A stretch of DNA of 64,000 nucleotides from Candidatus Heimdallarchaeota archaeon (GTDB taxonomy: Archaea > Asgardarchaeota > Wukongarchaeia > Wukongarchaeales > JBHIFL01). This document shows positions 19,237 to 25,581 of the stretch, one piece after another. The stretch lies in assembly GCA_046761065.1 (NCBI GenBank), contig JBHIFL010000001.1:64001-128000 (forward strand), written 5' to 3'. Made by a program: the position numbers and the translations under genes. Numbering within the stretch: the first letter of the stretch is position 1; each line of letters starts with the position of its first letter. The notes below the pieces were generated by a model, which saw only the letters and a program-made list of their open reading frames with translations, did no database searches and had not been told where the DNA came from.

Positions 19237-19415
19237 ACCTCGTTGAAATTCATTATTTCGTTCTTATCTTATATTTGGTGATCCCGTCCAGTTTTTTTAC
19301 TTTCTGTCATTAACCAACGAGCCTACCATTAAAGTCCCATGGTTATCCAAGAGTAATCATCCTTTCTACGAATCCGTTAATCCCTAAAAATATTTACAGT
19401 GATAATGATCTTAGC

Positions 19416-19428
19416 AAAAGATTAATAA
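19416..19428 (+). promoter_or_regulatory. Putative BRE/TATA promoter of the permuted 5S rRNA gene
   Basis: aaaag-attaataa lies about 25 nt upstream of the terminal stem starting at 19452. Confidence 0.55.
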
Positions 19429-19451
19429 TTGAATTTAATTCACCATTACTC

Positions 19452-19610
19452 ACTGCAGTGGAGCCGAAAGATAAGCTCGTTTCCGTTCTTGAGTGTACTA
19501 CGCTGCGAGAGCGCGTGGGAAATCAGGGAAGCTACCATTTCTCTGAGGTGGTGGCCAGAGGGGCGAGGAAACTCCCGGTCTCATTCCGAACCCGGAAACT
19601 CCATTGCAGT
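19452..19610 (+). rRNA. rrf: 5S rRNA gene, circularly permuted (3' half 19470-19537, linker 19538-19548, 5' half 19549-19597) inside a BHB-like processing stem
   Basis: 5' half TGGTGGCCAGAGGGGCGAGGAAACTCCCGGTCTCATTCCGAACCCGGAA lies downstream of 3' half GATAAGCTCGTTTCCGTTCTTGAGTGTACTACGCTGCGAGAGCGCGTGGGAAATCAGGGAAGCTACCA. Rejoined, helices I-V all form and conserved CCGAAC, GAAG.UAAG, GUAC and GGGAAA are present. Flanks 19452-19463 and 19599-19610 pair. Confidence 0.92.
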
Positions 19611-19779
19611 CTATTTCTTCAATTTATTTCCCAAAAAGGGATTAGATGTTTTGTTTTTAACTGAATTTCAGAGGCTCATTAATAATAGGATCCAAATCAA
19701 TGGTTGAATGGCAGAATGAGATAGTTGTCCTTATCCAAAACTCCTAGTTTTATAACTTCACTTCGTCCTGTAGTTTTAG

Positions 19780-21058: not shown

Positions 21059-22180
21059 ATGACTAGAGAAAATTCTGAGGAACTAGTAGTAGATGCATTT
21101 GGAGGAGGAGTAAGAGAGGATGATTATGCTTACTTGATGACGGAATTCGGAATCGAACGTATCCAAGATATTCTCTCCAATATCCCTGAACCGCACTTCT
21201 ATATGACGCGAGGGATCATGTTTGGACACACGGATCTGGGTCGTATACTCGAAGCAATTCGGAAGAACCGGCCCTTTGCGGTTATGACAGGGATTAAACC
21301 CTCATCATACTACCATCTAGGTTCTTTCATTACAGCGACAGAAGTCATCTATTTCCAGAGATTAGGAGCACACGTCTCCTTTTGCATTGCAGATCTAGAA
21401 TCGTATGCGGATGGGCGCCAAACACCGCAAGAAACGACCAAATATGCTATTGATAACATAACAGATGTTTTGGCCTTAGGCCTTGACCCGAAGCGGGCCT
21501 ATATATATCGACAATCAGAGGAGCTCGACGTGTTACGATTGGCTAGCCTTTTTGCAGCCCACGTGACGTATAATATGATGAAGGGACTCTATGGGGAAAG
21601 AGGGTTTGGACATTACCACGCAGCGTTGATTCAAGCAGGAGACATTCTACTTCCCCAACTTGAGCGTTTCGGTGGTCCTAAGCCAACAGTAACCCCAGTT
21701 GGGGCAGATCAGGCACCACATGCCCGTTTAACGCGAGATCTCGCAAAAAAAGAAGTCTTTCAGAAATTCTATGAATTTGTCCCCTCTGGTTTCACCTATC
21801 ATTTACTGCTTAAGGGACTTGATGGCACTAATAAAATGTCTAAACGAACAGCTATGTCATTTTTCAATTTCCAGGAAGAAGACTTCTTAATCAAACAGAA
21901 AGTGTTGAACGCCTTTACCGGAGGACGGGACACCGTTGAAGAGCAAAAACGGCTTGGCGGACGACCCGATATTTGTCGAAATTTCGATTTAGGCAAATTT
22001 TTCTTTATCCAGAGTGATAAAGAACTAGCAGATTTACGGGAAGAATGCATGAGTGGCCGATTACTTTGTGGAGAATGCAAACTGCAAATGCTCGAGCGGG
22101 TCTTAGAGTTCAAGCATCGACATAACGCCAAAAAAGAGAAATTACAGGATATGGCTCGTGAGATTATCTTGGGAGAATAA
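21059..22180 (+). CDS. trpS: Tryptophanyl-tRNA synthetase (archaeal type)
   Basis: TGIKPS..YHLGS (HIGH-like), Q.GDILLPQ, PVGADQAPH.RLTRD, KMSK, AFTGGR, LCGECK. Confidence 0.93.
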   Translation: MTRENSEELVVDAFGGGVREDDYAYLMTEFGIERIQDILSNIPEPHFYMTRGIMFGHTDLGRILEAIRKNRPFAVMTGIKPSSYYHLGSFITATEVIYFQRLGAHVSFCIADLESYADGRQTPQETTKYAIDNITDVLALGLDPKRAYIYRQSEELDVLRLASLFAAHVTYNMMKGLYGERGFGHYHAALIQAGDILLPQLERFGGPKPTVTPVGADQAPHARLTRDLAKKEVFQKFYEFVPSGFTYHLLLKGLDGTNKMSKRTAMSFFNFQEEDFLIKQKVLNAFTGGRDTVEEQKRLGGRPDICRNFDLGKFFFIQSDKELADLREECMSGRLLCGECKLQMLERVLEFKHRHNAKKEKLQDMAREIILGE

Positions 22181-22417: not shown

Positions 22418-23416
22418 GTGGAAAGGATGCAGCAAATAACGGAAAACTGGCTTGACAGCGCATTTAAGCGAGCTATGCGGATTTCTGCGAAATCCTCAAA
22501 GACACTCCCAGCGATTGTTCGAGCGAAAAACCGTGAAAGTGCACGGGTACGAACGGCGGCACAAGTCCTGAAAGATCGGCTTAGTAGGGTTCAGCGATGG
22601 TTTCCAAGTTTCGATAAGATGCATCCCTTCTACAGAGCAACACTGAGCATCTTCATTTCGCTTGATAAGGTGAAACAAGCGATTGGCTCCATCGTTGGCG
22701 GACAAAGCGTCATCCAAGCGATTGAACGGGATCAGATTAAAAAGATCAAGCGCGCGACAGAAAGTATCCAAGCAATTAGAGCTAGAAAGCAAGCCTTTGC
22801 CCGTTTTGCATCATTTTTAGGTAAATTGGAGCAAAGGGTACAATTTCTTCAGGAACTACGATTTAAAATGCGAGGGTTCCCGAACTTAGATCCCAATCTG
22901 CCAACTGTGGTTTTAGCTGGTTATCCCAACGTAGGAAAGAGCACTGTTGTTCAAAAAATCTCGTCCGCTAATCCTGAAATCGCTCATTATCCTTTCACGA
23001 CAAAAGAAGTCTCTATAGGACATGTAAACATCTTAAACGTCAAGACACAGATTGTGGATACGCCAGGAATACTAGATAGACCCGCTACTGAACGGAACCC
23101 AATCGAAAAACAAGCACTGGTTGCTCTACACCATCTTCCAGATCTGGTGGTCTTCATTTTTGACCCTTCGTTCAGCTGCGGATACGAGCTGCAAGCCCAA
23201 GAAAATTTATTTAAGGAGATTTTAGATACCTTTCCTACGACTCCGATCATTATTGCAATAAATAAAGTGGATATTGCCTCAAAAGATACAATTGATCAGT
23301 TGAAAGAGCGACTAAATGAAAATAAAGATTGTGTAGAGATTATTGCAACTGAAGAAAAAGGTCTTGATATCTTATTGAAGAATATTGGAAGATACCTTCA
23401 TCAAAGGAAATTGTAG
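22418..23416 (+). CDS. NOG1-family GTP-binding protein
   Basis: HPFY, AGYPNVGKST, YPFTTK, DTPGILDRP..ERN.IE, NKVD. Confidence 0.93.
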   Translation: MERMQQITENWLDSAFKRAMRISAKSSKTLPAIVRAKNRESARVRTAAQVLKDRLSRVQRWFPSFDKMHPFYRATLSIFISLDKVKQAIGSIVGGQSVIQAIERDQIKKIKRATESIQAIRARKQAFARFASFLGKLEQRVQFLQELRFKMRGFPNLDPNLPTVVLAGYPNVGKSTVVQKISSANPEIAHYPFTTKEVSIGHVNILNVKTQIVDTPGILDRPATERNPIEKQALVALHHLPDLVVFIFDPSFSCGYELQAQENLFKEILDTFPTTPIIIAINKVDIASKDTIDQLKERLNENKDCVEIIATEEKGLDILLKNIGRYLHQRKL

Positions 23417-24516: not shown

Positions 24517-25581
24517 CTATAATGATCTTCCCGCCCCATGACATTCAATAGTAACAGGTTCCCCAAGTCGTCCAATTACATTAAATTCGGCTCCTGCAAT
24601 GGTTTCACATAGTTCAATAGCTGTAATAGCATGTAATGTAAGTTCTGTGCAGCCTATTCGACTAACACCATCAGCCAACGCCATCCAAACGATCAATTGA
24701 TCTGAGAGGTGTTTGTCGATGGGCTTATTTCGCTGTAATTGAGAAATGAACTGACGTGCAGCTTCTTCTCCAACATGTTCGGCCTTTTTACCCCGTTCAC
24801 CTAATGAATCCGCCCCAATAATAGCACCTAAGGAGGATTTAGCCCATAGAACAATCCCTGATCCGGGGGATCTAGCGCTCATATCGGTTTTAACTTCGAT
24901 TGATACCTCGTTGAGCCCGTGTTTGGCAAGGGTACGCCTCGCAGATCGAGCTTGCCTTTCCGCCACATGTCTTGGCAGCTTTGAGCAATAAGATATGCCC
25001 TCAATGGCCTCAATTTTTCCTCGTTCAGGCAGAACAATGGGATTTATTTTATGAATCGGTGTTGCTTCGACTTCGACCAGTCCACCCCCTTTAGGATAGT
25101 AACCACGTCTCACTAGGTTCACAGTGGGTTCAAATCCCATATGTGTGGAGAGGATCGGAAGAAAAACGTTGGTCATATAGGGAATTGGAGGGGCCCACTT
25201 GACACTCGTCCCCCCCATTATTTTCAGGGAGGATCTGACTTGCGTGAATGCGAATACTGGAAGCACACATTGCAGGAGCAAAGTGATACTTCCAGCAGTT
25301 CCAATATCAATTGAAAAAGAACCCCCTCGAATTGATTTAGGAGAAAATCGTACCTCCATGCTGTTCTCCTCTAATCCCCACATCTCAGCTCCGCATACCC
25401 TTCCGACCAGCCTCACAGCTTGCCTATGTTGCGGTCGAAGTCCAGGATTTTTTCGTTTCTTTCTGATATTATAGACTCTGATTTGACGGCCATAAATAGC
25501 TGCTAACGCCACGGCATTACGTAACAGTTGCCCTCCGCCCTCACCTTGAGAGCCATCGATGTCTATTAGGCCTTCATGCAT
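24517..25581 (-). CDS. rtcA: RNA 3'-terminal phosphate cyclase
   Basis: DGSQGEGGGQLLR, RKNPGLRPQH, GTAGSITL, RGYYPKGGG, D.HL.DQL, TLH. Confidence 0.96.
   Translation of the reverse strand: MHEGLIDIDGSQGEGGGQLLRNAVALAAIYGRQIRVYNIRKKRKNPGLRPQHRQAVRLVGRVCGAEMWGLEENSMEVRFSPKSIRGGSFSIDIGTAGSITLLLQCVLPVFAFTQVRSSLKIMGGTSVKWAPPIPYMTNVFLPILSTHMGFEPTVNLVRRGYYPKGGGLVEVEATPIHKINPIVLPERGKIEAIEGISYCSKLPRHVAERQARSARRTLAKHGLNEVSIEVKTDMSARSPGSGIVLWAKSSLGAIIGADSLGERGKKAEHVGEEAARQFISQLQRNKPIDKHLSDQLIVWMALADGVSRIGCTELTLHAITAIELCETIAGAEFNVIGRLGEPVTIECHGAGRSL

Follow-up and report, generated by a model that had tools for sequence, protein, structure and literature searches.

In Thermoproteus tenax, the ring is the working form of the SRP RNA (Plagens et al. 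2015, PMC4731332), and the ribosomes of Methanosarcina acetivorans contain a circular 23S rRNA capped by a tetraloop (Shi et al. 2026, PMC12918454); 5S rRNA was not processed via a circle in the cultures studied (PMC12918454). In brown algal mitochondria, the finished 5S rRNA still has its helix I hairpin (Valach et al. 2014, PMC4267664), and in the E. coli 23S-cp5S construct, in which the 5S ends are joined by a 4-nt connector, the ribosomes are active and 5S occupies its normal place (Huang et al. 2020, PMC7283268). These precedents make it plausible that a ring could act as 5S rRNA. The molecule is usually treated as linear, universal, and easily found, and the 5S genes of complete Heimdallarchaeum genomes "could not be predicted" (Wu et al., PMC8813620). 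In a literature search that lay mostly outside the subscription journals, we found no permuted archaeal 5S gene and no permuted or obligately circular 5S rRNA outside mitochondria.

Within the window (the whole 64,000-nt stretch of Asgard archaeal DNA that was analyzed), a 5S rRNA gene occupies positions 19470 to 19597; it stands alone and is circularly permuted, with the 3' half encoded before the 5' half. Matches to RF00001 occur in swapped order, with the 3' part of the model at 19457 to 19540 upstream of the 5' part, and the locus gives no match at the gathering threshold (24.2 and 19.4 bits, against a cut-off of 38) because the gene is permuted and not colinear with the model. The rejoined halves align with linear Asgard 5S sequences, and their fold gives helices I to V; the region from 19440 to 19620 has a folding z score of -3.2. 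A search with Rfam of the whole genome, a 4.4-Mb metagenome-assembled genome (MAG) that is 91% complete with 8% contamination, returned the permuted locus as the sole 5S match. The flanks form an outer stem of 11 bp, a pair of 3-nt bulges, and a central helix in which three of the four pairs are standard and one is A-C, and a bulge-helix-bulge (BHB) or relaxed-BHB motif is thus present at the transcript ends, as it is in relatives, where three or four of the four central pairs form in 61 of 61 scored loci. Cuts predicted after the second base of each bulge would release a fragment of 128 nt, and joining at these cuts recreates a conserved 5S block found in linear relatives. We regard the reading of this locus as a permuted, spliced 5S gene as well supported, and its features are collected in the table.

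Features of the permuted 5S rRNA locus, in coordinates of the window
Feature	Coordinates	Strand	Basis
Putative archaeal promoter: purine-rich BRE-like run and TTAATA box (19422-19427)	19413-19428	+	Predicted by reading the sequence
Outer processing stem, 5' arm (11 bp)	19453-19463	+	Pairs with 19599-19609
BHB 5' half: strand CCGA (19464-19467) and 3-nt bulge; predicted cut 19469/19470	19464-19470	+	Agrees with joint in run X1
5S 3' half, encoded first (helix II 3' strand, helices IV and V, loops D and E, helix I 3' strand)	19470-19540	+	RF00001 partial match, 24.2 bits; half-model B
Helix I closed as 11-bp hairpin; linker 19538-19548, loop UCU 19542-19544	19531-19555	+	Folding; lies within X1 contig
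5S 5' half, encoded second (helix I 5' strand, loop A, helix II 5' strand, helix III, loop C)	19547-19597	+	RF00001 positions 28-51 at 19574-19597; half-model A
BHB 3' half: strand CCGG (19592-19595) and AAA bulge; predicted cut 19597/19598	19592-19598	+	Fold; joint in run X1
Outer processing stem, 3' arm	19599-19609	+	Pairs with 19453-19463
T-rich tract, possible archaeal terminator	19610-19630	+	Predicted from the sequence

The hexamer of the putative promoter also precedes the T. tenax SRP RNA gene (PMC4731332); a sigma-70 promoter scan of the locus was set aside as not applicable to archaea. The gene stands alone between a metallo-beta-lactamase-fold gene on one side and a proteasome subunit gene on the other, and sequences matching conserved 16S oligonucleotides are located on the same contig at a distance of about 80 kb. 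A search based on the proteasome-beta neighbor found nothing. Genes for a TrpRS-like protein (21059 to 22180), a NOG1 GTPase (22418 to 23416), and the RNA 3'-phosphate cyclase RtcA (24517 to 25581) are encoded 1.5 to 6 kb from the 5S gene.

Splicing at the BHB is observed in one sequencing run, X1, which is labeled metatranscriptomic, its status as RNA being a guess; no match in the search of sequencing runs is on record as RNA, and the share for X1 was 0.13. The run contains a single matching contig of 158 nt, or 128 plus 30, of which letters 1 to 62 align with 19534 to 19595 and letters 63 to 158 with 19468 to 19563, so that the joint goes back by 128. This joint (19595 to 19468, with two letters of slack) is the junction predicted from the BHB (19597 to 19470). 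The contig starts and stops with the same 30-letter stretch, 19534 to 19563, and such repeated ends are the usual form taken by a closed cycle of 31-letter words in assemblies of this kind; the words that cross the splice joint and those that cross the linker loop are both present. With 31 letters per side as the measure, the splice joint is spanned, with 62 nt on its short side, and the linker is not, the contig ending at 19534 and 19563 with at most about 15 letters on the short side. The preliminary description had proposed that splicing yields a 128-nt ring, and this is supported directly by a joint at the BHB site within a closed cycle of 128 nt, linker included. An intact ring is compatible with the cycle, but a de Bruijn cycle of this kind is equally buildable from precursor and re-opened form together, and the contig, which stops short of the gene flanks, gives no ends, strand, or proportions. 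It is one letter off the window, probably inside 19534 to 19563, where a difference is counted once per piece, and its source is probably a nearly identical strain in which the linker or its vicinity carries a variant. We rejected as a test for the ring a bound derived from contig depth, by which linker-spanning words would make up at least about 13% of the signal: libraries favor rings over linear RNA of 120 nt, and intermediates can abound. The bound also presumes that Logan discards words seen once.

We suggest that a short precursor is transcribed, the ends of which would form the BHB-like motif; that EndA, the presumed endonuclease, would cleave after 19469 and 19597; and that RtcB, the presumed ligase, would join the ends, so that the conserved 5S sequence is whole again across the junction. 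The product would be a 128-nt covalent ring with the normal 5S fold, its native ends already fused as a helix I hairpin cap, and this ring would stay closed and serve as the 5S rRNA of the large subunit. Genes for two EndA-domain proteins, for RtcB, and for uL18 are present in the genome. The two tRNA splicing endonuclease paralogues (L233 and L234, open reading frames of 219 and 239 amino acids) may form the heteromeric type that accepts a relaxed BHB. DUF402 (FAU-1/RNase W) was not found in the genome, a result that carries little weight at 91% completeness, and comparison of uL18 with the PDB produced no markedly closer chain.

The preliminary description drew attention to an 11-nt linker (19538 to 19548) between the usual 3' end of 5S (GCTACCA, 19531 to 19537) and the usual 5' end (TGGTGGC, 19549 to 19555), and these elements lie exactly where it put them. 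The four extra helix I pairs that it read from the linker, U-G, U-G, U-A, and C-G closed by a 3-nt loop, were reproduced by folding, the hairpin having a predicted free energy of -13.6 kcal/mol; as a measure of chance, 2.2% of 11-mers drawn at random from the genome and 3.6% of shuffled linkers show 4 bp of inward pairing. The ends are indeed joined, but the termini had been set too far in, since the last position of RF00001 falls at 19540, and a length of 11 nt is too large, as only 3 to 6 nt exceed a normal helix I, depending on where the ends are drawn. In linear Asgard 5S, the two strands of helix I contribute 9 and 10 nt, leaving six extra nucleotides here (19541 to 19546); helix I of the linear 5S of Methanococcus maripaludis has 11 bp (PMC10515664), by which measure nothing but the 3-nt loop is left over. 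It is more apt to regard the linker as the capped terminus of helix I than to call it a spacer of 11 nt, and the hairpin looks like a retained cap rather than disposable sequence. It falls toward the long end of the Asgard range, and its UCU triloop, above two G-U pairs, is atypical and is not of the UNCG type.

The permuted layout is present in about 88 of 151 Asgard genomes, distributed over 19 families. A covariance model of the permuted gene matched 111 of the 151, and the lower figure was reached by removing 22 partial matches on linear genes and one unverified match. Linear 5S genes scoring above the Rfam cut-off occur in 48 other genomes from six families, and none of the genomes searched contained both types. 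Those six families (f6, f10, f12, f16, f23, and f26; loci L005 to L034 and L108) may have reverted or may never have been permuted. Many Asgard genomes show two weak adjacent RF00001 matches in which half-models reveal the permuted order; a direct DNA search of 60 relatives gave one weak match, and detection required RF00001 half-matches together with the permuted model. Six single-contig relatives (G003, G013, G023, G025, G037, and G073) have permuted copies only, two each in G025 and G073. Named records with the same gene type include Odin-, Jord-, Loki-, Hod-, Heimdall-, and Baldrarchaeia. Within the order to which the window belongs, one genome (G001) gave a match, and it agrees in sequence and position with a record deposited as Ca. 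Hodarchaeota DZ1B.339. A pattern scan of all GTDB genomes yielded 111 matches; the pattern was tuned to the Asgard consensus and says nothing about absence elsewhere, and among the non-Asgard matches listed, all were linear 5S genes or chance hits apart from three, L183, L204, and L220. These three are permuted 5S genes of Asgard type whose records bear the titles Nanopelagicaceae bacterium, Bathyarchaeia, and Thermoproteota, and they are probably mis-binned contigs or reflect the submitters' labels. JGI metagenome contigs searched with the spliced-ring pattern returned no ring contig, only ten genomic genes with a shifted split, one linear 5S gene, and one chance match.

Variation on the permuted layout was seen in several lineages. 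In a Lokiarchaeia-type subset (L048, L059, L065, L072, L085, L110, L113 to L115, L118, and L119), the split lies about 16 nt earlier, before loop C, and the BHB-like end apparently uses the other CCGG strand of helix III, with the same helix I cap; the split point of 5S has moved in evolution. Two f13 loci (L073 and L083) and f4 loci such as L042 to L045, L076, and L086 have an extra hairpin in the 5' leader, situated between two apparent BHB half-sites, an arrangement suggestive of an intron or of splicing in two steps at the junction. Insertions of about 25 to 35 nt, which would be introns or expansion segments, occur in loop D of L091 and L072, in loop C of L101, and after the junction site of the linear gene L041. 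In Odinarchaeia-type genomes and Asgardarchaeum (L035 to L038 and L064), an apparent tRNA gene lies close to the 3' side of the permuted 5S gene.

The preliminary description suggested that the length and sequence of the linker be compared across relatives. A loop of 3 or 4 nt is constant in all 62 distinct hairpins, while stem length and loop sequence vary. The closed helix I hairpin spans 17 to 29 nt and mostly 18 to 20 nt, compared with a sum of 19 nt for both strands of helix I in linear relatives, and the predicted rings are 119 to 123 nt long in 46 of 61 cases, compared with 119 to 122 nt for linear genes. Among 31 distinct hairpins of 20 nt, 99.2% of cells are paired, four types of loop-closing pair occur, and covariation reaches 0.72, against 0.14 or less in slid registers. 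UNCG loops, which are stable structural caps, account for 35 of the 62, a count that is inflated by shared ancestry because kin inherit their loops; 8 others are YNMG, 1 is GNRA, and 18 are of other types. UNCG loops are spread over 12 of 18 groups and are present in the genome from the same order as the window, and a C-G closing pair is found in only about a third of UNCG loops. No loop cleavage motif common to the 18 groups, no single-stranded A/U-rich leader or trailer at the helix I loop in those groups, and no disposable spacer beyond the 3- to 4-nt loop was found in the relatives. One locus (L092, from G137) has a 31-nt stem-loop inserted in the cap, and without the insert its hairpin is that of L133; the cap can accommodate an expansion.

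The chief alternative to a mature ring is that the ring is an intermediate, opened at the helix I loop by a nuclease that nicks or trims it, to give a linear 5S rRNA of about 117 to 125 nt. Circularization followed by opening is standard for archaeal 16S rRNA and Thermococcales 23S rRNA, and circular 16S can equal linear 16S in abundance in total RNA; the circular pre-23S rRNA of M. maripaludis is opened by a structure-dependent cut, but known archaeal 5S end-trimming works on leaders and trailers (PMC10515664), features that the 18 groups lack at this site along with any spare spacer or shared loop motif. Permuted tRNAs of Thermofilum pendens, with spacers of 1 and 7 nt, need free ends (PMC3218864), which 5S can dispense with, as the joined-end molecule of E. 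coli demonstrates (PMC7283268). Loss of the loop would leave stems of 7 to 13 bp, comparable to the 7 to 9 bp of linear relatives, but UNCG caps recur even though the pairs that flank them turn over. Since a re-opened molecule also needs a paired helix I, covariation there is expected under both outcomes, and the two can be told apart only by the loop and by the absence of spare length; this point, the ambiguity of the X1 cycle, and the atypical loop of the window count against the ring. The preliminary description had left the choice between re-opening and a lasting circle undecided, and comparative anatomy, comprising loop, spare length, and ring size, favors the latter: we consider it reasonably probable that the 128-nt ring is the mature ribosomal 5S rRNA, a view that draws on the X1 cycle and the comparison of linkers across relatives, and take the linear outcome to be a serious but rather unlikely one.

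Two further explanations carry much less weight. The working 5S could be a permuted linear RNA with its ends at the BHB cuts, mostly unligated, the ring being a by-product. The mitochondrial 5S rRNA of brown algae does remain permuted in its final product (PMC4267664), and the circular 5S species of haloarchaea and Sulfolobales are probable decay products, but here the break falls within a highly conserved stretch that splicing rebuilds exactly, the ligated joint was observed at the exact site in X1, and BHB geometry is retained across families; we hold such a form to be very improbable. An assembly artefact or pseudogene might be suspected from the contamination of the MAG and from Rfam scores under the cut-off, and is refuted by conservation: the layout recurs, with compensatory changes, across the genomes and families enumerated above, single-contig assemblies among them, the spliced form is present in X1, and no other 5S was found, which leaves this explanation with practically no likelihood.

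A permuted, spliced 5S gene explains why 5S escaped prediction in Heimdallarchaeum. If the interpretation is correct, this would be the first case, outside organelles, of a natural rRNA with a gene order that obliges splicing into a ring, and close prokaryotic relatives of eukaryotes would rely on tRNA splicing for their 5S; should the ring prove to be the mature form, their ribosomes carry an rRNA without ends. On balance, we lean toward the broader proposition that most sampled Asgard lineages, including Heimdallarchaeia and Hodarchaeales, use an endless, closed 5S rRNA made from a permuted gene via the tRNA splicing machinery. The relation of the linear, 3'-U-tailed 5S rRNA of eukaryotes, and of the linear genes of six Asgard families, to the permuted form is thereby raised.

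The systems with which we began resemble the Asgard locus to different degrees. E. coli 23S-cp5S is artificial and fused into 23S, and its assembly defects were ascribed to lost 5S autonomy. Like the Asgard gene, the brown algal mitochondrial gene is a natural one for 5S in which a hairpin closes helix I, but its linear product is opened at the three-way junction, arises without BHB splicing, and is confined to an organelle. The 23S rRNA of M. acetivorans shares with the proposed 5S a ring made at a BHB and a terminal helix that stays in the ribosome with its tetraloop cap, but its gene is not permuted, and the cap is formed by the splice joint itself. Permuted tRNA genes, known from T. pendens and Cyanidioschyzon merolae (PMC3218864), have the 3' half first, a BHB junction, a circular intermediate, and a short spacer, as here; a tRNA must re-open to obtain free ends and 5S need not, and the join in the 5S gene is a paired, loop-capped helix. 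The T. tenax SRP RNA, with which the preliminary description had accurately drawn an analogy (PMC4731332), is likewise the product of a permuted gene for a universal RNA that was thought to be missing, with its own TATA promoter, a splicing-endonuclease site at the new ends, and a fold restored by ligation. It differs in not being an rRNA, in its occurrence in two Thermoproteus species as opposed to most sampled Asgard families, and in the experimental tests of ring function made there, the Asgard ring being known from sequence. The proposed mechanism matches that of the Thermoproteus SRP RNA.
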